The notes below the pieces were generated by a model. The model was not told the origin of the DNA and ran no database searches. It saw nothing but the letters and a program-made list of their open reading frames with translations. 64,000 nt of DNA. It comes from Botryllus schlosseri (taxonomy: Eukaryota). Each line of letters opens with the position of its first letter. The first letter of the stretch is position 1. The translations under genes were made by a program, and so were the position numbers. The stretch covers positions 29,698,001-29,762,000 of the forward strand of contig CM119372.1 of the NCBI GenBank assembly GCA_051294905.1, in the 5' to 3' direction. Below are positions 1 through 63,149 of the stretch, one piece after another.

Positions 1-7
1 AGAGTTG

Positions 8-7494: not shown

Positions 7495-7511
7495 AAAGGT
7501 AGAAGTGAGGG
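7495..7511 (+). promoter_or_regulatory. Polypurine tract (plus-strand primer) followed by LTR-like start TGTTAT at 7513
   Basis: aaaggtagaagtgaggg-t-TGTTATG, 28 bp after the last envelope-type ORF, the canonical PPT position. Confidence 0.65.
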
Positions 7512-10500
7512 TTGTTATGTGTTGTGTTGTGTTCGGTCCGTTTTTTACGGTTTAGAGTCCATGTGAAATTAACCATTAACCTAAATTTAATTCCGTTGAG
7601 ATAACATAGTTTAAAAATCATGCTGTATTTGCTTATGGAAGCTTAAAAGTGTGCGGGATTTAAGAATGTACGAGGCAAATTCGCGGTATAAAAGATGCTT
7701 ATGCAACGAATATCATTGCGAAACACATAATTGCGAAATTTTCGGATGGTATTGCTAAGCCAAATCAGGATTGAGTAATACATTACTTTGTAAAATATGG
7801 GAGCATATGGCGTGATCTTCGTAAGATGCAACCATAAATGACTGTGGGAATGTAAATTGCAATGGCATATTGACGCACAGGAAAATATAAAATTTAGCAG
7901 AAACGGCAAAATACGACCCCAATTGGTGGGTTGATCACGCCATTGCAAAACTCTTGCACAATAAGGCCACAAATGATGGTGGGAAAGGAAGCGCTACAGT
8001 GGAAAATTGACGAACAGGAAATATTTAACTACAGCAAAATGGTGAAATTTGACTGTAATGGGGGGCTTAATCATGCCGGAGTACGAAGGGTAGCGACAAA
8101 AATTTGCTTGATGAATGTTCGGATGTACGTCAGCCCCTGATTTACGAAAATAGCAAATTGCTCGTGGTGATGGGGGGCGGATGCAGGCATGTCAACGATC
8201 TTCCGCTCATAACTGAATATAACCCGAAGCGCAGGGACAGAAAATTCAGTTCACTCTACACAGAGCTGAAAGGCATGAAGAGCCTAGGAAGTTGGCAGGG
8301 TTTGAAAAAACGTTAACTGAGACTGATGACGAGTTGTTCAAATCTCATGAACAATCGCATTAGGACGTTATGTGAACGTTAGATAGAGTCTTTACTATAC
8401 GAGACAATGACTCTAACAATTAATTGTCAGCTTGGTAATTGACCAAAGATATTATAACCGTTGTTAATGCGTGATGTTAACAGTTATATAAACCCACGCT
8501 ATATAATTATAGACCAGGGGCTGGATCAGACTCAGCACGCAAAAACATCCAATCCAATAATCAGCCGTCACAAGATTAGGATCATTGTTTTATAATACTT
8601 GCCCTCCTCAGTGCTGCACTACTTGCAAAGAATGCGGTACTACTATGAGATAAGTTCTCTACATTGCACCATTATAATGTGACGTCATAGAACAAAGAGG
8701 ATTGAAGATTATCTGGGCTGAATATAAAGCGTCAGTGCTGACCAATCGAGTGCCTCTTTGTAAACTAAAAAGAACCATACTTATAAACGAGTTCAATTGG
8801 GGGACGGGAGACATATTTGGCTCCATACTGGGCCTACCATATTGTGGAAATTTGAATAAGAGGACATAGGACAAGCCTATCTATACTGTTTTATGGCACA
8901 CAGCCAGCCTGCACGGGGTGACTGACCCTAGATAAATTTCCAAAAGGCATGGTGCACCAAGACAACAAACCTGTAGTGTTTTTACCACAAGGATGAAAAC
9001 GGCTAATATAATTCTGTCTCACTAATTGAATCGCCAATATTGTTGCGCTGAATATTACCTGGAGCATTGAATCAATAGGACGAAATGATATCATCTTCTC
9101 TGTTTCCGCATTAAATCAGGTGGCTACACTTGCATTGGGCTATGAACTGAGAAATGGACTGGCAGTTCTTATCGAGAATACGAATATCGCGGACTTCTAA
9201 TTTTATAACTAACAAATAGGTATATAGCCATGCTCTCTTGCTACATTTTCAAATAACATTTGCTACTTTAGGCAAAGCAATTGGATATATGAGAGATAGG
9301 GATACATTTTAAACAAATCGATGTCTAGGAAAATTTCGACTTTACAAAAAGAAACTGATGCTCACTTTCCTATAAAGGGGAGAGAGAAAATCAACGTGGC
9401 ATTCATAACTATGATATGAAACGTGATTATATTCACCTGCTTCACTGGTAACTCTAATATACAAAAATAAATCCTAAATACTCAGTACTAATTCAATATC
9501 GACGCTAAAAACTTGTCCGTAAAAATTAAAATGAGCCTTCGGAAATGCGAGGCGGTCGGATTTGATGACGAATATTTCACACGGAGCATATTGCAATAAA
9601 GAATACAATCCTGAAATCTATCTTTATCAAATGACCAATAATGTAAGGGACACTACATTGATTTTTTAGTAGTGTGTATACGCATGTGAGCAATAGTTTC
9701 GAACAATAAAAATTTTAAAAAAAAAATAAGCTAATATCACGAGGTTTGGAAGCCTGTATGGAATAGGGTATGACTCTTGCTTCACCTGGCTTAATGCCAG
9801 AGGTCGACTATTTTTCGTAAAGCAAGCTGCATCAATTATTGCATTCGTTCTGCGTAGCTGGAGTATAAATGCTTCATGTAGCGTACTGCACACTGCACGA
9901 AGTTGACAATAGTAACTAGACTACAAGAAATGCCAATGATCTCAAATTGTACGCTGCTATACATAGGTCCATGATCTCTCGAATCACTGGCCTCAAGCAA
10001 CTTGATGTTATATGAATCGACTCGACATATCAGAAATATGAATTGACTTTTAATTCGGAGTAAAATTAGTTAACCAATTTCAAGTTATCAAATAATCAAT
10101 GTATAAAAAGATCGTTGTATCTAGCATATGTTCGGATTGTTCATGCAACATTTATATGATCCATAAAAGCGACCAATCATCCAATGGTATTGCAGTTTAT
10201 TTGGCATCCATTTGACATAGTGTCACGAACATATTGATTGCGGGTTAAGAAGTCGAAGTTAACAGCCAATGCTAGTGTAAGCTATAGTGTTTTATTCAAT
10301 TTCATCATTATTGGCTGGTATAATAAACTGTGCAAGCAATACAGCGCATTATTTGTGGACTTATTTAACTCAATATATCTTCATCGGTTAAATACCAATG
10401 ACCGCTCGATATGTATTGCAGAAAGATAGTAAAAGTACAATGATGTAATTACGTCTTATGACTGGTAAAAGCAATTCAATCCGAAACTTAGTTTGATTAG

Positions 10501-12105
10501 AGTCAACTTCACTAATCAGTTGACTTGACTCGATCAAAAACTGCAGTGACTCGAAATGACTCATGACTCGAAAGTTACAATATTGGATCAAGACATAACC
10601 AATCGGTGATTTTAATCAAAAGGTTTATTTTAGTTGCAAATATGGAAGGTGTTTCGACCCTGACTGACTACGACACTTCAGTTACTGCATGCACTACATT
10701 ATGGCATTCATTTACGTCAAGCAGGGAATACCGCTTCGGGAATCTGACCTATTGCATAAATGGCTAGTTTGAAACATGTCTTTCAACTGTAGGTACTTTA
10801 TAACATCTAACTAGAACAGTGAGTTAGGTTTACGACAAGAATAAATAACTTGTGATATTGCGACCAAACGAAATACAGTATCACATTTGAGACAACATCG
10901 TACACATACCTACCTCGGTGATAGCTGACCGTAAGCTGAGGGCAATCTTAACCTGGTACATCCATATATATTCCATTGGAAAGGTACGCCTTTTGTAAAT
11001 TCTGGTATATCCCAAGAATTACGTTATCCCGGTTGAGAAACACTAACTTACAAGTTCAAAAAATTAACTATGCCTATATACACAACTCGCCTCGTCGGTC
11101 TCAACTTAACATTGCGTCAAAGTAATTCAGTAAGCAAGCGTTTGCCACAACGAAGACGAGTCGCAAAGATGATTTCCTGTACGGTCAAACTCATATTACG
11201 CTGCGGGCCGGATAATGGTAGAATAATAACAATTCTGCTCGAGACGCAAAGTGATTGATCCACTTCAATGCTTTAAGCTACTATGACTATAATATTGGAA
11301 CCATTCTCAAAGCTCCCTTAGGTGAAGCATTACTGACATGGGCATGGTATCTAAATACTGTGTGACAAGAGCCACCCCCATTAATTGGTCCTTCTAGAAT
11401 TTCTGACATGATGGAACAATATTTGGGGTGAATCTAGTTATGCGCATTCGTATTTCGGGTCATAGTGCGTTCCCATTAGCACAATAATGACCTGTATACT
11501 GAACATTGCCTTGTTTTTTTTAGTAACTAGGGCGTGCAAACGCTGGTTATGCGCGCTCGGCGACTTGATACGGGAGTTTAAAAGATCGCGACGAAATAAT
11601 GAGATTGATTTTGATTTAATATTATGGTTTCTGTTTTCAAAATAATCTATCCGAACACGCTCGACAATACAATTCAGTACTAGTAGAAGTAATTTCGACG
11701 CCGCACTGACATATGCTATAGAAGTGAGGGGGATATTCCTATAATCTGGCTGCGAAATGCCGCGTACAACGAATTGATTTTGGCTCTAATTTAGTAAGAT
11801 TGGACAACTTGACAATTCTGACATCAGACTTGTACGTCACCACGCGCAAAGTTCATCTTGGCATGTAAGCTGCAAGAAGTTTCAAGAACCTCATATCGTG
11901 GGCCACAATGCACAGTCTATTGTCGTTGACTTACCTATGAAGAAAATTTAATTTCGAATACATGGCGTGATACTGGATTAAGAAATAGGTAATCTAAACA
12001 AAACAGATATCAATTTCGATATGGAAAATATTTTAATCCTGGCTGACTGAGTCACTTTATTTGGTATAATTACTGCATTGCGTTTTACTAAGGTAGGGTA
12101 GGAAG

Positions 12106-12638
12106 CAGTGTTGGGATGACGAGTCAATTGGGAGAAATGTTTTGACTCGTGTCGCGAAGCAAAAATTTACGAGCCAATATCAGGTCATAGAATAAACGGT
12201 GTCAAATAGACCACTATAGCTTGTGTATACTCGAATTGTTTCCTCAGATCATAAATAAATTGACCGCAGATGAAACTATCACGACTTACGCTGTCATGGT
12301 AGTTATAAGGATTATTTTAGATAACAACATCTCTCTGTTTCATTAAAGGGCTCATTGCTTACGTTGTGCAGTGCGCACCCTTCTATATTTTGGTTGATAA
12401 TGTCTGACTGTAGCATTTATCTTTACAATTACTCACGAATTTTACTTGCGCGTGATTGATACAACATCTTTTGGCGCGTATAATTAACTATATGTTTGTT
12501 ATTTAATTCAATGTAGGTGCTAAAATTCAATTTGACTCGAGTCGATGCTTGACTCATGGCTTGACTTGGCCTGACTCGATTCAGGGTCAGCCATGACTCG
12601 AGATTACTGGTGACTCGAGGGAATTGATACCAACACTG
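12106..12638. mobile_element. hAT-type MITE (CAGTGTTGG...CCAACACTG, gactcga-rich) inserted in the giant element
   Basis: TIRs plus 8-bp TSD gtaggaag/gtaagaag; same family as 52959-53927. Confidence 0.85.
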
Positions 12639-15600
12639 GTAAGAAGTACTGCTTCAAGAATTCTGTGCTAAAAAAGGCATGTTCTTCAAAATTAATTATA
12701 TTATCGAAAACTAAATAGAACCGTTGACTTGCCGCCGACGAGTAAATGAACAGGTGAAATATCACAATCGAAGGGTATAGAGTATCACATTAAAATAACA
12801 TTATACCATGTTGCTCGCTCGTCAGTGTTTCAAACCATACTGAATCATAGACCTACCTTTGCGATATCTGGTCTTAGGCTCATTGTATTACCGATCTGGT
12901 ACATCCCTATAAATCCTATTCGAAGGTTACACCGTGTTGTAAGTTCTGATACATCCTATAGTGTGCGGTAACCTTGGTGGAAGAGCTCTGGTCTATAATT
13001 CTAAAATCAACCTGTGCTTTTGCAAACGACTTGTCTTGTCTTATTCAAGTATAAACACTGAAGAACAATAAGACGACGCCAAGCTTGTACGATAGCAGGG
13101 CCGAGTCGCATAAATGACTTCCTGAATTAAAAGAACTCGTAATACATTGCAGTACCACTGTTATTGATCAATAACAATTATGTACGTTGTAACTATACGA
13201 GCTGTGAAATTGTAAATTCACTTTAAATATTTCAAGCTATGACGGACCTCGGCTTTGAAAATAAGAGTGCTTGCTAGTAGTTCTATAGTAGCATCGCCTA
13301 TTTCAAAACTAGCACGCTGGTGAACCCTGCAATGTTAACATAAATACATTCAGGATGTCAGGACATGATCAAATTCACCAGAAATAGTTTTGTGGGTATA
13401 GTAAGCTGTGTAACGGGGGTTGTCTCGATTAATGGATCCCTCCGAAATATTGGAAATGATGGAACGATTACTAGAGGCAGTTCCAGTTATACGTATTCAT
13501 TGATAAAGACAAAAATAACTTACATGATTTTTGGCACTAGGCAATTTTTTGATTAAATTACTGAGCTGAAATATTGAAATTACTGAGCTGAAATAAGACG
13601 TAGAAGGTATTGTCTCATATTATGTTTTAACTACCGTATATTTACTTATATGTAAGTACAATTGAGAGCAAAATGCAGAGTTTGTGCCCGTAACAGAGGT
13701 GATCAAACCGGTCGAATATTCCTAAAATAGAAGTAAGATTGGTCAGATTTAAATCTACTTAATTAAATAAATAGATTACAAAGTGTTACTGAGTAGAGCT
13801 TGAGCAAGGGTGGATGTTATTGCTGCGATGGCCATTAGCAAGTATGAAGAACAGGTATTTTGTTAAAAAGAGCTATTAGTGCATACCGACAGCTACAAGA
13901 GTACGTTTCAAGTATTATTGAAGACGGTGTATGAGTTATAGATACATAGGCAGCCTAAATGTTGTCCACTAATATTAGAAAATTGTGCAAAAATGATACT
14001 GACATGATACTGCTAGAATGGTTCTTTGGCTTCCGCGGATAGTGAAACCTACATTTTTGAGTTGTATTTTGATATAAGTGGTTACTCGAAACAGATTGGT
14101 TTTGTGAAAAAGATTATTAGTTCATTGATAGTGTGTTGGCATTGATGACACATGTTATTTAAAAACATAAAAACAGGTGCCGTTCTATAACAGCACAAAA
14201 TAGCGTTATATGTAGCAGTGCGCGTTTGTTATTGTGTCTTCTAGAAGGGATAGTGTGTATGGACCAAGTTTAACCTGCCATGGTCAAAGTCTAGATGTGA
14301 CCTTGTGGCAAATTGGTTGGCTGTAGGGTGCATTAAAACTTGACCATAAATCATCGGATCAAAATCAATCGGAAGGTGGCATTTAAAAATTGGTCACATT
14401 ATATTGGAAAAATATGAAACAAGTTGTCATATTCGATGGCATAATTATGCGAATAAGAACATAGTTTTGTGAATCAAAATAATTGGAAGCGCGAAAATTG
14501 ACCCATGGGCCCTCGGCGCCACTGCACTGCTGGGTTAAACTGAACAAATATGAATTTGATCGAAGTGGCGCAAATCTGAACTGTTTGCCATTTGACCATT
14601 TGCCTTGTGTTGTCTTTAACTACAGGTCTATAGCTTTGAAAATAAAAAACCAGTTGATATAACGTCCAAGTGGAATAGAACCGTAATAATAATTAGAGGT
14701 TAATGTCTAATTTGCATATATTTGGTGTAGTGCATGTGGTGATACCGTTGACGATGGACCAAAAGCAATAAAATATCTCAGGCGTGTGAAAGTAGCAACT
14801 TACTGATTAAAATATTCAGACAGACGGATATTCATTTATCAGTTAATTAAACTCAGAGATATAAAAGAACCAATTTTTGCCAGGTATGTTTGTTTTTGAC
14901 CTTTACTGCCTGAAATAAGTAATAAATACACATAGAATCTTAAATGATGGGGTTCGCCTTGTTTTAGGGATGAAATTATGGGCATAGGTACGACAAAGGG
15001 ACATGATAAATTGAGGAGCGATTATCGCCGCCAATACAGGTAGCTTACCATTAATTTGTAGATTATGTAATGACACTTGGTAGCTGAAAATGTCGGCTTT
15101 AACTGGTTGACTTTACACTGATATATCTATCAAAATAATGGTTGAATGATAGTTTATAATCAAACCGCCAACTCTCATAATTGAATAATGTGCTCCAAAA
15201 ATTTTAACAGATGGAAAACTGAACGTATATTGGGTCATAAAGAGACTAAAGGGTAGGATGCTAGTTTGCATACAAAATAATATTTCCGTCTTTTACATTT
15301 TAAGGTTAAAAATTTTTTGAATCCAATTGAGATCGTTCATTTTGTTCATTTGAGCTGTGCGGGAAAACATAGTAACGACTGCATAATTAATCGGCAAAGT
15401 TGTACTTATAATTAAATTAAGGACAAACAGCAAATTTGCAGATACCACATTTATGGAATGCGTCAGCCATATCTGACTTTCCAAATTCATTGGTGGCAAC
15501 GGGCACAATTTGTTCAGCTTTTGGGTGAGAATTACAGTGACATAAATATATAAACATTAACAATAAGTTTATCTGAACCGCAGGAACACGCACTAAATTT

Positions 15601-17138
15601 AACAATCCACGGTAACGAGTATAAAATGGTGCAAATCATTAGTATGCGTAATGGGTCATGAATAATTTGCCGCAGGCAACAGCGATGTTGCAAATTGGAA
15701 AATTGACGTTTCCAAAAAGATATCATTTCTAATTATAAGTAAATAAGGTTACTAGCTTTACACCTGTTGTCAGGGTCTATCAAGTACTTGTGAATGTCGG
15801 CCCTAAACCTATAAAAGCTCTAATCAGCTAATTGAAATTGATAATAACTTGAGGCGCTATGATCTAATTTATTTAGTTTATTCTAGATGTTTTGTCGTCT
15901 ACTGGGGTCATTAACACCAGGCTGATATTGGTCTTACTTTTCCGAAACTATCGACTTATAGCTTGACCTACCGCTCGGATTTTGTGGGACACTGCTAACA
16001 CGGCATAGCGGGTGATGAGAGGTTTTTAGTTGTCCAATATTCATAACAAACGAGAAAGTGCGCATCTAGTCAGTAATTCCTCAATTTGCGCGCAGAACAA
16101 AAGGGATACGAACCCGAAAGTTCGGCCTAATTTATTGGAATTGTCACGTGAACACTAAGCAAGTAGGCACATCCGAGTCTATTTGCGATTGATGGTGCTA
16201 GTTTGAAATTGTCAACCCTAAAGAAACAGCGCGCGCCATGCGTTGAAGCTCTATTTCATATACTGACAGTTCATGATTTTTTGGGTATTAGGCCGTGCCT
16301 ACAATGGAAGTTGGCGACTTGGTGTTTTGATGAGATAGGAGGGATAAGGTTCAATGAAACTCTTTACTATATATAAAAGATTAAAAACAAATCACGCAGT
16401 AGTTAAAGGCCAGACATATGCTCCACGTAAGTCCTGGTCAGTCAGTCGGATATATAATGATCCATTACAACCTTAATAATACATTATTTCTACGGCCTGA
16501 TTAATAGAAGTAACAACATCAATGGGTTAATATTAAATCCGCGAAATAATTGTGTTTAATAGTGGATGTACAGCCACAAACTAGATTGCAGCATAGTAAA
16601 TTCTCACTCAAATTGAGGTATGAATGATTGATAACGGAATTTGATGACTTGTACTGCACGGTGCGATGTGTGGGCATCGGCTCCTGCGCAAATAGGTGTA
16701 ATTTTGTTAAAAATCAGGTATATGAACTATATGATGGTGTTCAGATTGTAATTGCTATAAACCAGACTATAATTACGGCACTCTATGACCATCAATTGGG
16801 CGGATGGCTGGGCTCTAAAGGACCCAGAATCATTTCATGAACTAGTATTGATCGTGGATGGTGACTTTGGAAAATTAAAAAACTTTTTTCGAAAAATTTT
16901 CGTGTAGTGAATGGTTTCTAGCCGTCAAATATCTCGAATGCACTATAAATATAGCAACAAGCATGTCGTCATTTAACATTACTATGCCACAGTTTATCAA
17001 CACTCGACAAAATAAATGGAGCCTTCCTGCTGGTTACTTGGAAAATTAATGACACATGGGCTTATTGCATTTCCACAGGCCTGGTATATATAAAGCCCAG
17101 TAACCACAATACATCTCCTTGTTGGTACAATTGTGGCC

Positions 17139-17708
17139 ATGACAAGTGCTGATGCCATGGAGCCCTCTGTTCTAGATGAACAGATTTGGACCGGAAGGTG
17201 GATTGTTGTTATAAAAAATATAGATGAAATTCTCAAATCATGCCAACCAACGCCTAAAGCAGAAGATAGTGATACCGAAAAGGACGAAAATGAGGGGAAT
17301 AAACAAGAAATTGACGAGGCAACCTTAGAAAGCTACTTCGAAAGGAACCCGTCGATCTGGGGAGATGATACAGACTCGGAATTAGATCTCACTGACTCGG
17401 ATGAAAGTTCGAGTACCTTGTCTGGCTCTGGACATGACTCTGGACATGATGTTATAGAATCCTATCTTTTCCCAGATCATGAATTGAGACCTTATCCGAA
17501 TTCCGAATCCAGTGATTTGACAGATTCGAATGAGAGTCTGAATACCATACCCGATACGGGTGGCGTCCCTGAGTGGGCTGATACTGACTCTGGAGTTAAT
17601 AGTAGCGATTCCGATCTATCCTCAGATCATGAACAGTTACGATCTCTTGACGAGGCAACTCTCAGGCGCCTTGATAGAATGTTTTGGCGCCCCTGGAATA
17701 ACGAGTAA
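17139..17708 (+). CDS. Cargo ORF, acidic Asp/Ser-rich protein of unknown function
   Basis: Intact ORF with TATATATAAAG ~50 bp upstream; DEATL motif occurs twice. Confidence 0.65.
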   Translation: MTSADAMEPSVLDEQIWTGRWIVVIKNIDEILKSCQPTPKAEDSDTEKDENEGNKQEIDEATLESYFERNPSIWGDDTDSELDLTDSDESSSTLSGSGHDSGHDVIESYLFPDHELRPYPNSESSDLTDSNESLNTIPDTGGVPEWADTDSGVNSSDSDLSSDHEQLRSLDEATLRRLDRMFWRPWNNE

Positions 17709-22084: not shown

Positions 22085-22181
22085 ACAATCATGAGTAATG
22101 ACAACGAATGTAAATAAGATTTTGACTTACAAAGGGCACATTTTCCAAAGGTATAGAGTAACAAAGTGGGTTATCTAATTC

Positions 22182-23231
22182 ATGAGTAAAATGAACCGAG
22201 TGGAACTACTAGTATTATGGCTGGGTATGTGTAATGCTATTTATCCGGAAACAATAGAACAAAAGAAGTGTACAACAGATGAAAGACGAACCATGTTATA
22301 CCCGGAATGCATGCAAGGAAGCAATTTGGTACTTTGGTGTGACCATTCGAGCTATACAAGAATTCCGGATCCTGATAAGATATACCTGGCAAAATCTTGT
22401 CGGAACACAGAAAAGATATTCATCAACGACAGCTGCCTACGGGAAATAACCAAAGAACAATTGGAAAAATATAAAGACATAGAGGTGTTACATTGTGGTT
22501 GGAATAAAATCCAAATACTACAAGGAGGTGCCTTCTGCAAAAATGAAAAACTCAGGGAAATAAACTTGATGCGAAACTACATCACACAAATTGAAAAGGA
22601 AAGCTTTTCAGGCTTACACCAACTCGATAGTTTGTATTTAAGCAGTAATTTACTGGCAGAGATAGAAGGATCGATATTTTCAAGCCTGGAAAACCTAAAA
22701 AGACTATATTTGGATAACAATGTCATAAAGAGACTAAAGAACGGAACATTCAATCATCTGCGTCGTTTAAGAATACTGGATTTATCAAGAAACGCAATAA
22801 ACGTTATAGAAGAAGGGGCGTTCAAAGGACTGAGGAAACTGGAAACTTTACATTTGGATGAAAATAGACTGGTTGAATTTGATATGACAATACTCGAATC
22901 TTTATGTAATTTAGAGAGATTAACGTTGTACTATAATAACTTACGATATTTTTCTCTGTCCTCCAACATCTCGTTCAAATATCTACATACTATTGATCTT
23001 AGTTATAATCATGTTCAATTTCTTAGTGATTCCCTATTGAAAAAATTACCAGATTTGGAGGTTTTAAAATTAAAAAGAAATAATAATGAAACGTCTACCA
23101 AAAGACCCTACGTGCGTAAACAATCGAGATTATATTATGCTGAGATGAAAAGTTTATCCCATTGTGTGACTATACATTCAAAAGGTGCATTTGCCTTTAT
23201 TGTTTGGCTAGTCACTATCGACCTGATGTAA
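22182..23231 (+). CDS. Secreted or membrane-anchored leucine-rich-repeat protein, intronless
   Basis: Signal peptide, Cys-containing LRR N-cap, about eight 24-aa typical LRRs (LxxLxLxxNxIxxI...F.gL), hydrophobic C-terminus. Confidence 0.88.
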   Translation: MSKMNRVELLVLWLGMCNAIYPETIEQKKCTTDERRTMLYPECMQGSNLVLWCDHSSYTRIPDPDKIYLAKSCRNTEKIFINDSCLREITKEQLEKYKDIEVLHCGWNKIQILQGGAFCKNEKLREINLMRNYITQIEKESFSGLHQLDSLYLSSNLLAEIEGSIFSSLENLKRLYLDNNVIKRLKNGTFNHLRRLRILDLSRNAINVIEEGAFKGLRKLETLHLDENRLVEFDMTILESLCNLERLTLYYNNLRYFSLSSNISFKYLHTIDLSYNHVQFLSDSLLKKLPDLEVLKLKRNNNETSTKRPYVRKQSRLYYAEMKSLSHCVTIHSKGAFAFIVWLVTIDLM

Positions 23232-23295
23232 TTTGAAGAAAATGTGGAATTTCGAGGTATTGATTTAGTATTGTCCTCTGTTCAACTAGTAATAG

Positions 23296-23850
23296 ATGTT
23301 TAATATATTAGAATACGGTAAAAAAATTACTAAAAGTATCAAAATGTGTTTGGGATTGCGTTGTGATGATCCAGATATACAACATACGACGTGGATACCC
23401 CAAAAAGAAACACTAATAGACAACGGATTAAAGTCGCTGAAGTTTCTGTTGACAACATATTCACTGACGGATCACTTATGTGATATAATGTACGACGAAT
23501 TAAATCCACGACTACTATATTGGAAACAAAAGTATGGTGTCACAACATGCAACAATCATTGGCTTGGGAAACATCTGGTTGAAAATGAGTGGGAAGAAAT
23601 TTATACAGGAAGCATTTACCCTGAAAAACCTATACAAATGGCTTTTGCAGAAATTTGCATAAACTGGGTAACAATTTTAAAGAGAGTAAATCCTGAAATA
23701 AGGGAATTTCTAAAAAAGGGAGATTCTGAAAGAGATCTCATAATGTGGATAATCTTTCCGGAAGTTCAAATTTATGCATTGGCAAAGACGCAGGAAATAT
23801 CATTAAAGGAAGCCGATTGTAGATTTATGACTTTGAAAGTACCTGCATGA
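23296..23850 (+). CDS. Cargo ORF, paralog family A
   Basis: Shares two motifs with 19284-20156. Confidence 0.7.
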   Translation: MFNILEYGKKITKSIKMCLGLRCDDPDIQHTTWIPQKETLIDNGLKSLKFLLTTYSLTDHLCDIMYDELNPRLLYWKQKYGVTTCNNHWLGKHLVENEWEEIYTGSIYPEKPIQMAFAEICINWVTILKRVNPEIREFLKKGDSERDLIMWIIFPEVQIYALAKTQEISLKEADCRFMTLKVPA

Positions 23851-23918
23851 AACTTAACTTTCCGATGTTTATGTATACAGAAACTACTTTTAAAAAGACA
23901 ATTAAGTTTTAAATAAAT

Positions 23919-24866
23919 ATGAAGACTAAAGAACCCAGAAAAAGAAGAAATCTATTCAATCTTGCTCGATGTGGTATAATATCAAGTGAACGAAAATGTA
24001 TAAAGTTTTTGCGATCACGGAAACTCCTTGTTCAAAAGGCAACATGTTTTAAATGTGGACAACAAATGAATGAAGAAAAATGCAAAAGAACTATGGATGG
24101 ATATAGATGGAGGTGTCTGGTTTCAAAGTGCCGGACTACCACGTCCATAAGGAAAAGATCGCTATTTGAAGGAAGCAAAATAAGACTCACCCAACTTGTA
24201 ATGATGATTTATCTTTGGACCATAGATGCATCTCAACGACAAATAGCTTTTGAAGCACACGTCAGCAAGAGAACAATGGTGAATTGGACCAAGAAACTTC
24301 GTAAGATATGCTCTGGGGAGATGGAAAGAAGAGGTACTCTAATAGGGGGAATCTCACAAGGTAAATCACATGTAATTCAAATTGATGAGACGTTTGTGGC
24401 CAAAAGAAAATTTAATCGTGGAAGAATAATACGCCAACGCTGGGTTTTGGCTGGAATAGATATGAAAACGCGAGAAATGTTTGCAGAATTGGTACCTGAA
24501 GAAGGGAGAAAAACCTCTGTATTATCAGAAATAATTATGAAACACGTAAAAGAGGGATCCACTATATGGACTGATTCATTTGCCAGTTACCGCAAGTTGG
24601 AAAGCCTGGGAATGAATTATAAACATTCAATAGTTAATCATGATCGCGAATTTGTCACCCCAGAAGGCATAAATACACAATTGATCGAGGTGTCTTGGAA
24701 TTTTTTCAAAGCTGCTATTAGAAGACTGAATGGGGTATCAAGATCACATATTCCCCATTACTTACAGGAGTGGCTCTGGAAAAGAAGGGTGGCCTTGGAG
24801 GAAAGGTTTCAACTATTTTTGGAGATAATGGCCCTTGATCCTAACTTTAGGTCATTGGAACATTAA
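23919..24866 (+). CDS. Merlin/IS1595 (ISXO2-like) DDE transposase 2
   Basis: CFKC...WRCLVSKC, IQIDETF, IWTDSFASY, HSIVNH...TQLIEVSW; own ATG; clearly diverged from transposase 1; no flanking TIRs seen. Confidence 0.92.
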   Translation: MKTKEPRKRRNLFNLARCGIISSERKCIKFLRSRKLLVQKATCFKCGQQMNEEKCKRTMDGYRWRCLVSKCRTTTSIRKRSLFEGSKIRLTQLVMMIYLWTIDASQRQIAFEAHVSKRTMVNWTKKLRKICSGEMERRGTLIGGISQGKSHVIQIDETFVAKRKFNRGRIIRQRWVLAGIDMKTREMFAELVPEEGRKTSVLSEIIMKHVKEGSTIWTDSFASYRKLESLGMNYKHSIVNHDREFVTPEGINTQLIEVSWNFFKAAIRRLNGVSRSHIPHYLQEWLWKRRVALEERFQLFLEIMALDPNFRSLEH

Positions 24867-25039
24867 AACAATGTTGTCACTATGACCAGTATCATTCGAT
24901 ATAAGTGATTTGAATCTTTTGGGAAACAATATAGGCGTAGATGAGTATACTAGTGTTATAATCCACATGTTTATAAAGCTATGAAATGTTTCTATTTAAG
25001 TACATATATGAGTGAGAATTATAGAATAAGCATATTATT

Positions 25040-25753
25040 TTGTTATTGTGTCACAGTGGGATAATGTATTTATATGAAATAAGGAGTCATAATGCGACTA
25101 TTTTTCAAAACCTACTGACACAACTGGATGAGGTTGAACTAACAAAAAAACCTAAATTTCTCAGCGTCCTGATGAATGTGCTCAAGTCTTTTTTTGAAAA
25201 GGAACAAAATTGGTATAAGAGACCGAAAGCATGTGATGGTGATGAATCTTGTGCTTGGACGTCAGAAGAAGACACAGACAAAGATTCAAGCCCAGATGAA
25301 TTATATGAAACAGACTCCGAAGACTCCCAAGATTCTGCCATAGTGAAAAATTCATCTCAACAACAACGTGTAATAGTATGGAAAGAGCAGACGATACAGC
25401 CTGATGAAAATTCATGGACTATAATTACGGAAACACTATTGGGAGTAATCAGAAGAATACCACCCTCAGGAATAAGGCGAGTAGTATATGAAGTCATACG
25501 AGGAGTAGTAATGAAATATACCAGAATTTGGATATGCATAACTAATCTTGATTATGTGGAAAGTGCCAACTCCAAATGGTCATGGCACAGCCAAAAGAAT
25601 TTGGGGGTAAAAGGATATTTGGCATTGGATTATGAAACAACTGCTATGGAAGGATATATATATATTTACTCAAAAAGAGTGAATAGAGAAACTGAGTCGA
25701 TGAGACAATATCTGGAAAATTTTTATCATCTTGCTCATAATCCACATTATTAA
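25040..25753 (+). CDS. Cargo ORF, paralog family B
   Basis: See 21518-22084; carries an extra acidic stretch. Confidence 0.7.
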   Translation: MLLCHSGIMYLYEIRSHNATIFQNLLTQLDEVELTKKPKFLSVLMNVLKSFFEKEQNWYKRPKACDGDESCAWTSEEDTDKDSSPDELYETDSEDSQDSAIVKNSSQQQRVIVWKEQTIQPDENSWTIITETLLGVIRRIPPSGIRRVVYEVIRGVVMKYTRIWICITNLDYVESANSKWSWHSQKNLGVKGYLALDYETTAMEGYIYIYSKRVNRETESMRQYLENFYHLAHNPHY

Positions 25754-26014
25754 TGAGTAGGTTAAAACGCCTAAGCTATGGAATTAATGGAATCAATGTT
25801 AATTGTGAAAGTGATAAAATCCGTTATTAATGGGATAAATTTAAGATTGTGGAAAATTGAAATTCGATACATTGAAACTATTGTTATTAACATTTGTTGT
25901 TGCATGAAATTTTAATGGTCTTTGTTTTTCATTTAAGAACAGAATGTTTATGTGTTAATACTAGAATATTGGATTGGTATGATTGTATTTAACCATTTTG
26001 ATTGGTATTACTGA

Positions 26015-27765
26015 TTGCCTGTTCTGTCAAAAGCCATTATACCAAGAAGCAATCAATTTGAAACTATGGGCATTCTGATGAAAAGAGATCGTGATCCTCC
26101 TGGACATAATTGCATTTATATTCCACCTGGAGATCACCGGGTTGAGCATTACAGACTTGCAACGTTCAAACATTTTCCGAAAGAAATTCCTGTGATACCG
26201 AGTTATCTAGCCGCTGCTGGTTTCTATTGGACAGGATTTCAAGATAGAGTAAGATGTTACTGCTGTGGCGTATCTGTGGAAAAATGGGTCACTGGAGATG
26301 ATGCCTTTGATGACAAGTGGCATAAATCTACTTGTGACATGGTGACCGGACAACATGGTTATAACTTGCCTATTTCAAATTGCTCAAGGAGGCTCCTTTT
26401 TGAACAAATTAGGTGCCACCTTAACTTTACTACAAGAAGTCAGCAAACTAATCGGAATGTGCAAAAACCGACTATTAAAGAGGAAAAATGTCCATTACCG
26501 CAAACCGTGTTTGCGAACATTTGTGACCAAGAACATGAGACTTCATTGCGATCAGCAAATTTGAGAAGTGAACTAGAGAGAAGAAGAACCTTTGACAAAT
26601 GGCCTTCCTATCCTGCTCCATATTTGGTTGGGGAATTGGCAAAACAGGGATTTTTCTACCTAGGAAACCTTGACAGAGCGCAATGTTTTTCATGCTCAGG
26701 AGTACTGAGAAATTGGGCACCCACTGATAATGTTCTTGAACAACATAAAAGACATTTTATGCAAAAAAATGCAAAATGGCAAATAACGAGTATGCGGGAA
26801 ACATGTCCTTGACAGACTCCGAGAGAAATCAGGCAGATAATGAACTTAAAATAAAAATTGAAAGGTTAACTGCTAATAGGGGAGAACCTCCGGATCCATC
26901 GCCAGAAGAACAACTCCAGTTGGTGGAAAGATTCCCTTGCCTTTACCCGATAAATTTGCATATGACATCGTTACAGCAAAGAATATCTTCGTTTAATGAA
27001 AAATGGCCCAGGATCCTCGCAACAGCGGAACAATTGGCTAAAGCGGGTATGTATTATCTAGGGGATTCGGACAGAGCGAAATGCTTTTACTGCAATGGAG
27101 GACTACAAAACTGGAACTACAATGATGAGCCGTGGACAGAGCATGCAAAGTGGTTTCCTGGTTGTGAATATGTTTTGCAAATGAAAGGTATTAATTTCGT
27201 TTTACGACTAAGAGATGAACATCCCAATCTCAATCGACCATCGATAAGAAATGCAATATGTCTTGATGCACCACGAGAAGAGATACGAAGGAACCATAAT
27301 CGACCAAGGTTATCTGGACAATACATAAACAGGATGCAATTGGAAGACATGGGATTCACGAGAGATCAAATAGAAGGAACTATAAATAGACAAATTAATG
27401 ATCATTTCTCTACTGGTGACATAATCCAAGATTTACTGGAGACAGTGGATACAATCTCCACGAGTCCAATAAAAACAACACAACAACAAGTTCCCAGTAT
27501 GTCTGAAAATAAGCATGAAGTGAACAACAACAAAGAAACGAAAGAGGCAGCAGTTGCAGAAACAATGTCGGTGGATGAAATCGCGCAAAGTTTAAAAGAA
27601 ATACAAGAGGTGGTGCTTTGCAAAAATTGCAAGAGAAACAAAAGTGAAATTACTTTCATACCTTGTGGGCATTTATGTAGTTGTGAAAGATGTGCAACAA
27701 ACTCTGAGCGATGCAACATTTGTGGTGAAACAATACTGGAAAAGATAAAGGTGTATAGAGCTTGA
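26015..27765 (+). pseudogene. IAP: Inhibitor of apoptosis (3 BIR + UBA-like + RING), intronless, frameshifted at A7 run 26763-26769
   Basis: BIR1 RLATF...GFYWTGFQDRVRCYCC, BIR2 GFFYLGNLDRAQCFSC...EQH, BIR3 GMYYLGDSDRAKCFYC...TEHAKWFPGC, LEDMGF, C-terminal RING CKNC...PCGHLCSCERC...CNIC. ORFs 26015-26812 and 26776-27765 join at the end of BIR2. Confidence 0.92.
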
Positions 27766-27911
27766 TGGAGCAGGCAGGACTATTATTTTGTGGCATGAAT
27801 GCTCTTGATGCATATGTATAATACATGATGTTACTAGTTACTTTTGCGCGTATGAATCAATTATTCGTAAAATTGAACATATGATTTTAACGTACTTTAT
27901 TCTGTATTAAG

Positions 27912-28367
27912 ATGACTAGAGTATTAGAGAATTGGGAAATTACGCTAGCCAAGAAACAAATTAATGAATACTATGATGAATTTGAACAGGAATACCATCA
28001 TCAAAATTTTGAGATATGGAAAAATACCCCAAAGGAAAAATTCAAACAATTAATAAAGAAATACCTTCATCATTGTTTTGCGAATGTGACAGAAAAACTT
28101 TTTGATAAGCTTTATGACGCACATAGCGATATTGCTCGCGTTTTTGTTACAAAAGATTTTGATCTGGCCCAATATACATGGTTTGGACTTGTTCTAAAAC
28201 TACATCCGGCTCATAAATATCTACCAGAAGAATTTCTGGATGAAAGATTACCACAGATGGAATTGCAAGATTCTACAACATTACTTCTAAATGCTCGAGA
28301 ATTTGAAACTGTTGCTATTCCAATTTTAGAAGACGCTTTTTCCAAAATTGTTATACTGCACGATTAA
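27912..28367 (+). CDS. Cargo ORF, paralog family C (copy 1)
   Basis: F..Y...W...H..I...A...W...LHP...E motif shared with 28373, 30066 and 30610; closest to 30066. Confidence 0.75.
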   Translation: MTRVLENWEITLAKKQINEYYDEFEQEYHHQNFEIWKNTPKEKFKQLIKKYLHHCFANVTEKLFDKLYDAHSDIARVFVTKDFDLAQYTWFGLVLKLHPAHKYLPEEFLDERLPQMELQDSTTLLLNAREFETVAIPILEDAFSKIVILHD

Positions 28368-28372
28368 GAGGA

Positions 28373-28768
28373 ATGTCTCGAAGAACCATAAGTAACCAGG
28401 AATTATTGCAAATGGGACATGAATCTGCAGTGTGCGACTTGAAATATTATTTTGACATGTTCTGTAAATACTATGAAGAAGATGTGGAAATTTCCGACAG
28501 ATGGCAAAGATGGGCTATGACAAGACCCAATGACATTGTCAGAATGCTGACGCTGTATGTTGACAAAGTTTACGGAAGTGCCTTATCTCCTCAAGGCAAG
28601 GCTCTGGGATATCACGACGCTATTAAAGAACATAATCGGATTGCAATTATTACATTGGGAAACTATAAGGAAGCCAAATTCCTTTGGTACCAACATATTG
28701 TTCGTATGCATCCCATGAAGGAAAACGTTTCAGAACAATGGATAAAAGAATGTTTGAAAGATGATTAA
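28373..28768 (+). CDS. Cargo ORF, paralog family C (copy 2)
   Basis: GNYKEAKFLWYQHIVRMHPMKE matches GNYEKAKLLWFHYMARMHPMEN of 30610. Confidence 0.75.
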   Translation: MSRRTISNQELLQMGHESAVCDLKYYFDMFCKYYEEDVEISDRWQRWAMTRPNDIVRMLTLYVDKVYGSALSPQGKALGYHDAIKEHNRIAIITLGNYKEAKFLWYQHIVRMHPMKENVSEQWIKECLKDD

Positions 28769-28887
28769 CTAAAATTATGTATGTATTGCCTCGAATTTTC
28801 CACTACATCAATGAGTCGCATAGAATATTTCGTATAAAAAACCCTAATTTATGTAATTATGTTGGCTTGCTGATTAAGACTTGATGA

Positions 28888-29415
28888 ATGTTTAATGGTG
28901 TTTGGGTTTTTTGTGTAAGGAATTTTAAGACATTAGGAATTTATTTGATTTTTAATCGTGACATGTTGGAAGTCAATTATGAAAAGTATGAATATGTGCC
29001 CAAAGACCCACAGAAGAAAGAATTGAACCGAAAAAAGTTCAGACCGTGTCCATATCCTACGATACCTGACAGCAGAGTTGCCTGGCTAAGGATGGGAATT
29101 GTACATGAACGAATAAAAGAAAGGATCGAGAACTTTCCGACTATGACAGCCAATGACATGGAATACGTATTGAAGGATTTTCTTGTTTGGCTATACCGGG
29201 ACCATGAGGTGGTGGAACAATTGGAATGCGCCAGGAAGGTACTGAAGCGCATTGTGGAAGAAAACTTTGGAGAAAGTCCTGCATACTATTTGTATGTATT
29301 TCTACGATATGTGTTGGCTATAGCTAATGTTGACGAAGATTGGAACATTACTAGCAGAACTATTGCCGGCTTTTCACGAAATATGTATGTTATGGATAAA
29401 CGACTGAATTGGTAA
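28888..29415 (+). CDS. Cargo ORF, unknown (start may be the ATG at 28942+)
   Basis: 175-aa intact co-oriented ORF between family C copy 2 and the E2 gene. Confidence 0.6.
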   Translation: MFNGVWVFCVRNFKTLGIYLIFNRDMLEVNYEKYEYVPKDPQKKELNRKKFRPCPYPTIPDSRVAWLRMGIVHERIKERIENFPTMTANDMEYVLKDFLVWLYRDHEVVEQLECARKVLKRIVEENFGESPAYYLYVFLRYVLAIANVDEDWNITSRTIAGFSRNMYVMDKRLNW

Positions 29416-29473
29416 TGTTTCCCTTTCTTTTTATGTGTGTAAGTCTTACCGAATAATATAGAATCTACACCGA

Positions 29474-29929
29474 ATGGCAAAGCATAGATTACATTTTGAA
29501 AGGCGAAAAATCACTCAAGAAATTCAAACGAACCCTTTAATTTTACAAGCGGGGCCATTGGACGAATCGGATATCTATGTTTGGCAAGCACTTTTGCGCG
29601 GACCATCAAAGACACCATATGAAAGGGGAACATTCCTTCTGAGAGTTGAATTTCCAACGGAATATCCATTCAAACCTCCGAAGATTAAATTCGAGACCAA
29701 AATTTTCCATCCGAATATAAGCCGTAAGGGTACCATATGCATTGACATTCTTGCAAATGAATGGTCACCTGCTTTAACGTTGGGAAAAGTATTGGTCTCG
29801 ATTTCGTCATTATTGGCTTCCCCTAACCCAGAAGATCCAATGGATGTTGAGAGTGCCAGACTGTATCGGGATGACTACGAAAGTTATCAAAAGAAGGCAA
29901 TAAACTGGACTGATATGTATGCTAAGTAA
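29474..29929 (+). CDS. UBC: Ubiquitin-conjugating enzyme E2 (UBE2D/E-like), intronless
   Basis: GPSKTPYERGTF...YPFKPPKIKFETKIFHPNISRKGTICIDIL...WSPALT...PNPEDP; HPN motif and active-site Cys intact. Confidence 0.95.
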   Translation: MAKHRLHFERRKITQEIQTNPLILQAGPLDESDIYVWQALLRGPSKTPYERGTFLLRVEFPTEYPFKPPKIKFETKIFHPNISRKGTICIDILANEWSPALTLGKVLVSISSLLASPNPEDPMDVESARLYRDDYESYQKKAINWTDMYAK

Positions 29930-30065
29930 ATTGCTATGTACCTAATACGCTTATCACAATTATTGAATATTTTGGGAGTGTAATTATACTTATATGTGTT
30001 AAAAATGTTAGTAAGGAAAGTTTCCGGTCCAATAATCAACGTAAAATTCTCTATATTAAGAAAAT

Positions 30066-30521
30066 ATGGGGGATAAAATTGTTAGAGTAAAGCATGAACT
30101 TGACGTTTTCTTCGATTCCTTTGAAAAAAGATACGAACACAAAGACTTCAGCAGATGGGCTGCAACAACACGGGATGAACTGGAAACATTTATGACACCT
30201 TACTTGAGGATTTGCAACCTAAGAATATCCGATAAACTGTTCGATGCGCTATATAAAAAGCATTTAGCCATCTCCCGCATGATATTGTTTGAAAATTACG
30301 AACATGCCAAGTTTTGCTGGTTTGTTTTCTGTGTTGGATTACATCCTGCCTCGGATGTCATACCTGAAGAATGGGTGTTGGAAAGAATGCCTTGTTCTGA
30401 TAGAACCGGATTTTGTATTTATACCACTGATAAACTCTTTAATGATACTTTTCCCTCTGATGTAAGAGCTGCTATACTGATACATAAAATGAAATGTAAT
30501 GGCTGTAATTATGAACAATGA
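30066..30521 (+). CDS. Cargo ORF, paralog family C (copy 3)
   Basis: Same length (151 aa) and motifs as 27912-28367. Confidence 0.75.
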   Translation: MGDKIVRVKHELDVFFDSFEKRYEHKDFSRWAATTRDELETFMTPYLRICNLRISDKLFDALYKKHLAISRMILFENYEHAKFCWFVFCVGLHPASDVIPEEWVLERMPCSDRTGFCIYTTDKLFNDTFPSDVRAAILIHKMKCNGCNYEQ

Positions 30522-30609
30522 GTGCATGGATGGTATATTGTATTTTTTGCCAGGTTGAATGTCTATTAATCATCTGTGACGTGTATGACAACTATAGACC
30601 CTTACCTGG

Positions 30610-31089
30610 ATGATTAATTTCTTTCAGAAAATTAAAAGTATGAATAACGCGGAAGTAAATGATAAAGGTGATGTTGATGTCACCAAACTAGTTGGATCTA
30701 ATGTGGCGGAACAAGACTTGATCTTTTATTTTTGGTTATTCAAAGAACGATATGAAGCAGGAATACCTCCCTCTCATAGATGGTACGAGTGGTCAAGGAC
30801 CCCACCCAAATATATCAAACTTGGATTGAAATGTTTTTTCAAACGAGTTAAAGATACCCTTTCTGATGAGAAGCCCCTTGTTATTGACTACCAAGGAATA
30901 CTAGAAAACCATAAAATGATAAGAAACATGGCATCTGGAAATTATGAAAAGGCTAAACTTTTGTGGTTCCACTATATGGCTAGAATGCATCCTATGGAAA
31001 ACTTGATCAAGGATGAATGGGTGAAGGAACAAGCTGAATCCACGGAACCCTTTTACCCCGAGGATACTGTAAATGTCCTAGTCCTATGA
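30610..31089 (+). CDS. Cargo ORF, paralog family C (copy 4)
   Basis: Paralog of 28373-28768. Confidence 0.75.
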   Translation: MINFFQKIKSMNNAEVNDKGDVDVTKLVGSNVAEQDLIFYFWLFKERYEAGIPPSHRWYEWSRTPPKYIKLGLKCFFKRVKDTLSDEKPLVIDYQGILENHKMIRNMASGNYEKAKLLWFHYMARMHPMENLIKDEWVKEQAESTEPFYPEDTVNVLVL

Positions 31090-31380
31090 ATATGGTTAAG
31101 TTCATGAATAATATTGATTTCATGTATTCCTATTGCATGTGTATAAAGCGTTATAACTGGCCTACGGGATATAGAACGGTCAGAACCTCTATTGCGTCTT
31201 GCATAGAGTCATTTTATTGTATTTTGTCGCACAGAGAATTGATTCCGTCACGTTCACAGCTTATTGAATGGTTTGGTTAACCTACATTCAGAAATGTTTT
31301 ACAGTTTGTACTGATTATTGCCAATCGGTTGACTGCGAATTATGTTTAATACTGAGGGGCCTCGTCATCCCTACAGTATG

Positions 31381-31389
31381 TATATAAGG
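31381..31389 (+). promoter_or_regulatory. Candidate TATA box of the genomic (LTR) promoter
   Basis: TATATAAGG in the non-coding interval ~840 bp upstream of the PBS; position is plausible but unproven. Confidence 0.35.
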
Positions 31390-32224
31390 CGTTATACACT
31401 GCTACGCCCTTACCTTTAAGCAGGACCCTAGGGACCTTATCACCCCCTAGTTTAACGAAAACAAAATGCCGAACTTTACGGTGAGAATCGTTATTGAAAA
31501 AAAATAATGAAAAACAATATAAAATTTATAAAATTTTCTTTTACATAAGCCAAACATGGAATGTTTGAAGTCCATTTTTATGGAAACACTAAAATTATAC
31601 TGATAACTGAAACTATACTAGAGAACTCATCAGCAGTGTTCAACTAAGCAACACCTTGTTAAGGGTAGTATCGAACAGGCTGATTAATAGGCCTATGGTA
31701 ATAATAATTGTACTGACGATTTGACGTCCTTAATGCTGATTGTGTTCTTGTATTATGTGATGAAATATTTTTGAAAAGATCAGCTTTTCGGCAGGACAGG
31801 CCGTCGCATGAATTATATGCGTAAACAAACCTTGGAGTATTGAAAATGTTTGTTAATTGTGTATGATGATGTATAGGTTAAACCATGCCTTGTGTTATAA
31901 TTGATGAATGATGTGTATGCCAATTTTAACCAAGCTTTGCATAGAGTTACCACATTTCCGTCTGCGCAATTAACTATTGGAGTATTTGGTTGTATTAAGG
32001 TTCCAGATTATCAGTAGATAAGGGTAGATTAAAATTCTGGACCCCAGGGTCATTGTCAACTTGAGAAGAAACAATCCTACAACTGTTGTTGCTCCAATCA
32101 CCATTTACAGACGTCGTCAAGATACTAAAGCAAACGAAAGGCAACGCTTTACTAGGAAGTAACCCGAACAAGTGTGGACTACTCGCATAACAATCGTTGT
32201 GGAGCTGCACTCTAAAAACAAAAT

Positions 32225-32242
32225 TGGTGGCCAGTACGGGGA
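32225..32242 (+). promoter_or_regulatory. Primer-binding site complementary to tRNA-Ile(AAU)
   Basis: TGGTGGCCAGTACGGGGA is the 18-nt complement of the 3' end (UCCCCGUACUGGCCACCA) of animal tRNA-Ile(AAU) as I recall it; it lies after ...AACA and ~310 bp before gag. Confidence 0.88.
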
Positions 32243-32271
32243 CCTTCCGGTGTTCAGACGTTGACCAATCG

Positions 32272-32541: not shown

Positions 32542-32549
32542 GAAGGGCA

Positions 32550-51900: not shown

Positions 51901-63149
<11,249 letters not shown>

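Follow-up and report, generated by a model that had tools for sequence, protein, structure and literature searches.

A 39-kb integrase-less retroelement with Merlin-type ends in Botryllus schlosseri and its proposed passage through a circle

The genomes of Caulimoviridae are circular and use internal plus-strand primers. DIRS tyrosine-recombinase retrotransposons are reverse-transcribing elements as well, and they insert without integrase via a proposed circle. The element described here shares with Ty3/gypsy (Metaviridae) the order gag-PR-RT-RNase H, the RNase H type and a tRNA PBS placed after U5. According to the accessible part of PMC8256270, Caulimoviridae reverse-transcribe a terminally redundant RNA, have lost integrase and occur as episomal DNA; our element lacks integrase as well, and would resemble them in the redundant RNA and the episomal circle proposed for it. 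Its DDE_Tnp_IS1595 domain, terminal GG, imperfect repeats and 8-bp duplication are those of Merlin/IS1595 (accessible part of PMC8101967). Teratorn, a piggyBac-herpesvirus fusion, is alike in that its virus-like genome was endogenised through a DDE transposase and short inverted repeats (PMC6431247, accessible part), but its partner is a DNA herpesvirus, while the partner here is a reverse-transcribing element. The same part of PMC6431247 gives more than 30 kb for Burro, which has BIR and env-like parts, and 1.9-6.5 kb for Ogre LTRs. A literature search by title and start of abstract, with subscription papers, Repbase and bioRxiv supplements outside its scope, gave no described equivalent.

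The window is the whole stretch of B. schlosseri DNA that was analysed, 64,000 nucleotides long. The extent and ends of the element in it are as follows.

8 to 39010, plus strand: whole element, multi-copy, 39.0 kb; sister alignments start at window positions 2-8 and stop at 39010-39017
1 to 7, no strand: left 8-bp target duplication, its first base just outside the window
39011 to 39018, no strand: right 8-bp target duplication
8 to 30, plus strand: left imperfect terminal inverted repeat with GG start; 17/23 bases equal the right repeat
38988 to 39010, minus strand: right imperfect terminal inverted repeat

Each element end was scored at 40 places. The 19 copies with both ends read were single insertions in host flanks, and 18 of them had fixed GG ends together with 8-bp target duplications. 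For another copy the empty-site joint was present in reads. Between the GG-ended inverted repeats of the window element (8-39010) the order is transposase-env-cargo-PBS-gag-pol, and in three copies of a sister family it is cargo-SL-PBS-gag-pol-transposase-env, between ends of their own. Judged by sequence, the sister family has the same cyclic gene order as the window element, opened elsewhere. Rfam gave 0 matches on 1-39100 up to E 0.1, and one distant relative was found in viral contigs. The genes outside the cargo, and a second transposase, are listed here.

407 to 1246, plus strand: IS1595/Merlin DDE transposase (PF12762, E 3.7e-10; dN/dS 0.11 in 30 copies)
23919 to 24866, plus strand: second IS1595/Merlin transposase (about 40% identity with the first one); dN/dS 0.21
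1376 to 2740, plus strand: env-like protein A with a hydrophobic stretch at its N-terminus; no match in Pfam; dN/dS 0.30
2951 to 3892, plus strand: env-like protein B, C-terminal membrane anchor; dN/dS 0.14
3979 to 7467, plus strand: large glycoprotein-like ORF with a stalk rich in Thr/Ser; its N-part is related to protein A
32550 to 36974, plus strand: gag (CCHC knuckle) into protease and RT start; two separate frames in 7 sisters
36938 to 38737, plus strand: RT remainder (YIDD), RNase H and Tpt1-like domain; RT split over two frames in the window copy

The D, D and E motifs of the DDE_Tnp_IS1595 transposase could be read in the sequence. Proteins A and B may function as env, judging from their hydrophobic profiles and the purifying selection on them. 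The order is gag, protease, RT and RNase H, with the protease recognized from its motif and from alignment with relatives, and dN/dS of RT-RNase H was 0.049 (30 copies). The best PDB match of RT was 8r0s (E 2e-16), which we take to be the CaMV enzyme; matches toward Caulimoviridae were weak. Pfam showed no integrase domain in pol, which ends with the Tpt1-like domain, and none is listed for the five closest outside relatives either. Neither a tyrosine recombinase nor a Caulimoviridae-type movement protein had a Pfam match among the 22 ORFs searched.

The element departs from each of its likenesses. Unlike Ty3/gypsy it has no integrase, no paired LTRs and a permuted order, with transposon ends and the Tpt1-like domain after RNase H, and unlike Merlin/IS1595 it is 39 kb long, carries RT, gag, env-like and cargo genes and shows signs of RNA passage. 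From Caulimoviridae it differs firstly by its animal host, its 39 kb, env-like genes and CCHC gag, and secondly by inserting itself precisely, with inverted ends and duplications of 8 bp; from DIRS it differs by its DDE transposase, target duplications and tRNA PBS.

Several of the signs of RNA passage lie in a short region upstream of gag.

31783 to 31975, plus strand: segment common to several families; it accumulates sense reads from 3'-type single-cell libraries and is a candidate region for the RNA 3' end
31976 to 31999, plus strand: exact copy of the host spliced-leader (SL) exon, in 41/45 copies
32000 to 32224, plus strand: U5-equivalent, 225 nt between SL and PBS
32225 to 32242, plus strand: PBS for tRNA-Ile(AAU), 18/18 against the host tRNA 3' end with CCA
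32242 to 32246, plus strand: hypervariable junction at the PBS 3' edge, 14 strings

The SL exon sequence is listed as a chordate SL (PMC3795323). The template-switch adaptor was joined at 31976 in 665 reads, mostly from host mRNAs, and these reads therefore identify the leader and not the RNA start of the element. The SL copy is likely the RNA 5' end and the terminal redundancy (R). As an obligatory splice donor the SL copy was rejected, since GT comes next in only 19/41 copies. The probable RNA start at 31976, like the Merlin-type ends at 8 and 39010 and the integrase-less pol, was missed by an earlier note on this DNA. The PBS was kept in 45/45 copies examined, RT-less short ones included, all of them found by searching that region. 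Its slot holds variants for tRNA-Ile(AAU), Thr(AGU) and Thr(CGU), and for each of them the host has a matching tRNA gene; two copies that share about 95% identity differ in the tRNA type. The PBS 3' edge is also the most length-variable site, with 22/41 copies off the modal length; none of 521 other positions had more than 10 such copies.

Linkage between adjacent 70-nt segments was 0.51-0.91 in 41 copies, except across SL (0.09) and PBS (0.15), while U5 and the post-PBS sequence remained linked (0.45-0.52) when longer segments were taken. The PBS break adjoins a low-diversity segment. In 22 long copies linkage fell off as segments lay further apart along an RNA opened at SL (Spearman -0.55, the best of 16 openings) and did not do so along the integrated DNA (-0.07). 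The SL-opened decay was matched by 2/1000 shuffles, the segment pairs being non-independent, and it was uneven, with the loss concentrated in the last 6-8 kb before SL. The breaks at SL and PBS, the variability and switching of the PBS and the circular decay of linkage together point to reverse transcription of an RNA crossing the joined ends. We consider, with a probability of about 0.7, that this is a 39-kb integrase-less element of retroviral type with Merlin ends, which makes its DNA by reverse transcription of RNA copied from a circle and is inserted by one of its own DDE transposases.

The Merlin ends, the duplications, the two conserved transposases and the success of a short family without most of RT and transposase would also suit a giant Merlin DNA transposon that captured a one-LTR retroelement and moves as DNA only, its mosaicism due to gene conversion between integrated copies. 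Such a transposon is improbable in view of PBS switches between host tRNAs, breakpoints located at SL and PBS, the low dN/dS of RT and the PBS retained in every examined copy, with the search bias given above.

The cycle that we propose for the circle-passing element would begin with the joining of its two ends into a circle; an element of the IS1016 group is a precedent for circle formation (PMC12561309, accessible part). Transcription round the circle would give an RNA with the order SL-U5-PBS-gag-pol-right end-left end-transposase-env-cargo-SL. In the step that is weakest, the host would trans-splice the RNA at the AG of the SL copy and so provide its capped 5' end, perhaps its 3' end as well, which would leave R as little more than the leader. 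In Ciona operons the upstream mRNA ends at the downstream acceptor (PMC1488885, accessible part). The scars support the following step, in which a host tRNA would prime at the PBS, the strong-stop DNA would jump at SL, often to RNA from a different copy, and the plus-strand jump would take place at the PBS. Synthesis would end at a unit-length circle, so that U3-R-U5 would never be duplicated and would be free to reach tens of kb with genes. The transposase, the presumed enzyme for the observed ends, would finally open the circle at the joined ends and insert it, and the permuted gene order would result. The logic of one circle with cargo genes in the U3-equivalent part, put forward in the earlier note, is supported by these results, and a genomic RNA near 39 kb is supported indirectly.

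The same reverse transcription could use a pol-transposase RNA from head-to-tail copies, from read-through or from two joined RNAs, with no excised circle, as the scar and linkage results require only RNA in that order. The search for circle junctions found none. A right-to-left end junction with both ends within 20 nt had 0 matches in the assembly; a small contig, C125, had the right end without a left end after it. In four runs searched against a short copy with both ends, no go-back joint was among the best-supported 15 of 263, at an RNA depth on the element of mostly 0-4. For 31500-39010 no RNA record containing it was listed, which says nothing either way about expression. The lack of a junction in the assembly counts also against head-to-tail copies, as do the 19 single insertions in host flanks, and we find this source of RNA quite unlikely.

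The purine tracts and the parts of the long interval between the env-like genes and the PBS are listed next.

7495 to 7511, plus strand: purine tract of the earlier note, 15/17 purines, candidate only
216 to 232, plus strand: purine tract, second candidate plus-strand primer; in 29 long-copy left ends read, missing in 8/9 short copies
38889 to 38903, plus strand: pure purine tract, best candidate plus-strand primer, about 105 nt before the right end
7513 to 17138, no strand: non-coding variable part, 45-86% covered by each of 6 sisters
17139 to 31089, plus strand: cargo cluster, 16 ORFs, all plus strand; dN/dS 0.08-0.31
22182 to 23231, plus strand: leucine-rich-repeat protein (PF13855)
26066 to 27765, plus strand: IAP, three BIR and RING, two frames in the window copy
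29474 to 29929, plus strand: ubiquitin-conjugating enzyme (PF00179); dN/dS 0.08

The earlier note had read this interval as a possible giant LTR, running from a plus-strand primer at 7495 to the PBS 24.7 kb away. The PBS at 32225-32242, the TGTT start, the AACA end and the 15 ORFs were all confirmed: TGTT lies at 7513, AACA at 32217-32220, ending 4 nt before the PBS, and the number of plus-strand ORFs with 100 aa or more is 16, or 15 when the split IAP, a single frame in 5/6 sisters, is counted once. The spacing proved to be the family norm. A PBS was paired downstream of the tract at 28 of 34 places (36 matches minus 2 halves of split matches), with a median of 24.7 kb; 19 of these intervals measured 20-27 kb, 4 less than 10 kb and 3 more than 30 kb. 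The interval is, on the other hand, never duplicated and therefore not an LTR in the usual sense: the window element and 6/6 fully tiled sisters have one SL and one PBS each, no long direct repeat was found within the window, and two direct long terminal repeats at the element ends were absent, as was any copy with two repeats.

That the 7495 tract is a working primer was not confirmed. Tracts 17 nt or longer with no more than two pyrimidines number 77 in the element, and 14 of them end in GG. Across 16 sisters the tract shows 90% identity, compared with 97% for the sequence immediately before it and 86% for that immediately after it. None of four more distant families sharing this gene order had a G-ending tract directly after the glycoprotein stop, and the tract region was missing in 8/10 short-copy stretches. 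From these comparisons the tract does not appear distinctive. The 38889 tract was at the same place in 21/21 right ends of the window element's family, short copies included, and an equivalent lies 74-75 nt from the end in 3/3 copies of the sister family, making it the better candidate plus-strand primer. A plus strand starting at 7513, with U3-R-U5 equal to 7513-32224, would be compatible with the circle reading as one of several starts. The tract and TG stand in the usual place after the last env-like gene, the conservation of TGTT over 16 close sisters is 97%, and CA stands four bases upstream of the PBS in 39/44 copies. Such a start is still unlikely, and an LTR start there unsupported, given the losses of the tract, the better-kept one at 38889, and TG...CA ends for which we know of no role where integrase is lacking.

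All 16 cargo ORFs were under purifying selection, and 17101-32224 was 92-100% covered in 6 sisters. The preceding part, 7513-17138, had no ATG ORF of 100 aa; it holds repeat pieces occurring outside the element too. A late DNA-level insertion of the cargo into a normal short LTR, the other option of the earlier note, could draw on the variability of this part and on one copy with only about 0.4 kb between tract and PBS. That copy, however, arose by deletion at a 9-nt microhomology and has neither SL nor U5, and the examined short intervals break at different places. With the long interval as the family norm, the cargo under purifying selection and no two-repeat copy, late insertion is rejected as highly improbable.

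The closest host relatives of the E2 gene (about 80%) are likewise intronless. An acceptor-motif scan, run without control, had a match upstream of 7/20 ORFs. A joint 31999 to 21498, considered as the leader spliced onto cargo genes, was dismissed as too weak (6 reads, a 21-nt side and an A-rich target).

A wider reading, which we hold tentatively and at somewhat less than even odds, is that of an animal pararetrovirus-like lineage with a reverse-transcribed 39-kb genome, whose latent form, inserted by transposase, alternates with an episomal circle. SL would be its whole terminal redundancy, trans-splicing would define both RNA ends, and the U3-equivalent would carry about 15 conserved genes, IAP and ubiquitin E2 among them. 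If true, a circle inserted by a cut-and-paste transposase would be a third persistence route for tRNA-primed retroelements, besides the insertion of two-LTR DNA by integrase and insertion by a tyrosine recombinase. At close to 39 kb, the RNA template would exceed the ~30-kb Burro elements (accessible part of PMC6431247), and the size would be explained by a U3 free to grow when no repeat is duplicated. With a leader common to all trans-spliced RNAs, any related RNA could receive the first-strand jump; the mosaic copies, and perhaps gene capture, would be accounted for in this way.

One copy consisted of both ends and gag-pol only and still kept its 8-bp duplication; plain DNA transposition may therefore also occur.

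Sister stretches could be aligned from window positions 2-8 up to 39010-39017, and the element ends there in imperfect inverted repeats, each starting with GG. Duplications of 8 bp flanked eight of nine long copies and all ten short (shortened) copies, and the empty site of one copy was visible in reads. Such repeats with an 8-bp duplication are given as marks of Merlin/IS1595 in PMC8101967. The gene order was transposase, three env-like ORFs, interval, primer-binding site (PBS), gag, and protease-RT-RNase H-Tpt1-like domain; a domain search of the element ORFs found no integrase domain in pol. Selection on RT-RNase H (dN/dS 0.049) and on the transposase (0.11) was measured over 30 copies each, the window copy itself being defective in gag-pol and IAP. 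The features are as follows.

7495-7511, purine tract
7513, TGTT, start of the interval (7513-32224)
17139-31089, plus strand, all 16 interval ORFs
31976-31999, spliced-leader (SL) copy
32000-32224, U5-equivalent
32217-32220, AACA
32225-32242, PBS
32266-32521, small ORF in the PBS-gag gap, with a hydrophobic stretch; related families have similar ORFs
38240-38737, Tpt1/KptA RNA 2'-phosphotransferase-like domain (PF01885, E 6e-11), after RNase H in the usual place of an integrase

Outside the element, among host repeats, lies a 785-bp inverted repeat pair (52104-54736, 92% complementary). An 8-kb copy (L061, G000:C16:622400-632300) was missing from some sequenced alleles, its empty-site joint occurring in each of the four runs; the insertions are thus polymorphic.

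An earlier note had read the tract and the PBS, facing each other across 24.7 kb, as a possible giant gene-bearing LTR. All its landmarks were in place when read from the sequence, and the PBS matched the 3' end of host tRNA-Ile(AAU) at 18 of 18 positions, CCA included. Its 15 ORFs became 16 on the plus strand when those of at least 100 aa were counted, IAP being split in the window copy; besides IAP, the products comprised a second IS1595-type transposase, a ubiquitin E2, an LRR protein and unknowns, of which four are paralogues. The first 9.6 kb of the interval was variable and non-coding. The tract region had 34 matching places, of which 28 were paired with a PBS downstream. The median spacing of these pairs was 24.7 kb, 19 of them spanning 20-27 kb and 4 less than 10 kb, and the long interval is the family norm. 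The note's alternative, a secondary DNA-level insertion of the cargo into a normal LTR, predicted short, cargo-less sister intervals. It is rejected, since the short intervals examined among the 28 pairs were deletions with breakpoints differing between copies, and all 16 cargo ORFs had dN/dS of 0.08-0.31 (5-7 copies). In one unpaired copy, a 9-nt microhomology marked the fusion of window position 7929 with the PBS, and SL and U5 had been lost. At G000:C1:34.1-34.5 Mb, a tandem cluster of E2 genes without introns reached 81% identity with the cargo E2. Dispersed E2 copies (55-57%) fell into two sets of equal-scoring members, and other mobile elements may be their carriers.

The coordinates and the long interval were thereby confirmed, whereas two parts of the interpretation were not supported. 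Firstly, the interval is no LTR in the usual sense: SL and PBS were single in the window copy and in six tiled sisters, so nothing is duplicated and the name is merely formal. Secondly, the tract at 7495 did not stand out as a PPT. It was one of 77 similar tracts, 14 of them GG-ending, was conserved no better than its flanks, and was missing in four distant families and in eight of ten short-copy stretches. In 21 of 21 copies, among them short ones, a pure purine run ended 104-111 nt from the right end; in the sister family with permuted gene order the distance was 74-75 nt (3 of 3 copies). As the run was chosen as the longest in a 130-nt window, just its fixed place is informative. Should this run act as primer, the formal U3-R-U5 of a circle would measure about 32 kb and include the transposase and env genes.

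The template-switch adaptor was joined at 31976 in 665 RNA reads of one run and 93 of another, and these reads diverged into unrelated sequence past about 32007, which identifies the 24-mer as the trans-spliced leader of the host. PMC3795323 lists this sequence among chordate SLs, which points to an ascidian host. The SL occurred in 41 of 45 copies, at 218-270 nt upstream of the PBS, and also in related families. The preceding base was G in 29 of the 41, which could reflect copying of a cap, and GT followed in just 19. In two single-cell libraries, classed as 3'-type by their adaptor, sense reads concentrated in bin 31656-32182 (depth 231 and 65, versus at most 9 elsewhere); they thinned towards the leader and came from several diverged variants. 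Polyadenylated ends likely lie near the leader. The assembly held 236 exact SL matches, and of 30 read about half had gag of this element type downstream. Two stretches (L204, L221) carried partial second leaders (the last 11 bases) right after the SL, which misaligned strand transfer or re-splicing could produce.

Linkage between adjacent 70-nt segments was 0.51-0.91, except across the SL (0.09) and across the PBS (0.15, adjoining a low-diversity segment). These two positions are the strand-transfer points of tRNA-primed reverse transcription. Across the leader, each of five upstream types was combined with both downstream types. The five bases at the PBS 3' edge occurred as 14 strings, and 22 of 41 copies were off the modal length; none of 521 other positions had more than 10 such copies. 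The PBS slot held tRNA-Ile(AAU), Thr(AGU) or Thr(CGU) variants, each matching a host gene, and differed between two copies about 95% identical.

Long-range linkage was compared over 16 segments in 22 long copies. The block on the left (end, transposase, env) was linked to the one on the right (U5 to right end) at a mean r of 0.46 despite 30 kb of separation; with the intervening cargo, the two blocks were linked at 0.18 and 0.22. Linkage correlated with distance at -0.55 when the molecule was taken as open at the SL, the best of 16 openings, and at -0.07 on the integrated DNA; segment pairs are not independent, and 2 of 1000 shufflings of segment places reached the former value. The result held when the two SL-flanking segments were dropped (-0.54 versus -0.19). 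Loss of linkage was concentrated in the last 6-8 kb upstream of the SL; a possible reason is a first jump onto shorter 3'-end RNAs from other copies.

At seven places in the genome pol was directly followed by the transposase, and the four examined at length all read cargo-SL-gag-pol-transposase-env. Ends were located for three, 38-44 kb apart; their left ends were alike, and as these were located via the duplication, its count there is no independent test. A subterminal motif was common to the right ends of this permuted family and of the window element, whose gene order recurred in four more distant elements. The two openings of one cyclic map are compatible with a circular stage. A block move within a tandem dimer could also give both orders, and the lack of a joined right-left end junction in the assembly and among the read joints listed counts against a circle.

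On the circular reading, a full-length RNA with ends made by trans-splicing would be copied, synthesis would halt at a unit-length circle, and one of the two transposases, either being a candidate, would insert this form. The element would work like a pararetrovirus with a Merlin insertion step added, and belongs to neither group. As precedents, the IS1016-group element ISApl4 has a circular intermediate (PMC12561309), caulimoviruses have terminally redundant RNA and have lost integrase (PMC8256270), and in Ciona operons the poly(A) site of the upstream gene lies directly next to the acceptor of the downstream one, the authors doubting that trans-splicing itself creates the upstream 3' end (PMC1488885). 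No described equivalent was found by title and abstract, mostly among papers outside subscription, nor in the accessible part of a giant-transposon review (PMC6431247).

RT-RNase H matched five database proteins at 35-51%; three had the Tpt1-like tail, and no integrase domain was listed for any of the five. One 13.9-kb contig combined gag, integrase-less pol and an env-like ORF, arranged in the ordinary order; neither a transposase match nor a long direct repeat was found on it. The integrase-less relative (L090:1713-1870) carried a perfect 27-bp inverted repeat followed by a site similar to a PBS for initiator-Met tRNA, with a BED-finger-like ORF upstream on the opposite strand. Copies of mostly 10-14 kb with shared gag-pol deletions (L045-L058, L062-L064; contigs C1, C2, C3, C6, C7 and C13 of G000) form a non-autonomous family, which retains both ends, the PBS, the right-end purine tract and mostly the SL, and whose left 3 kb derives from another subfamily.
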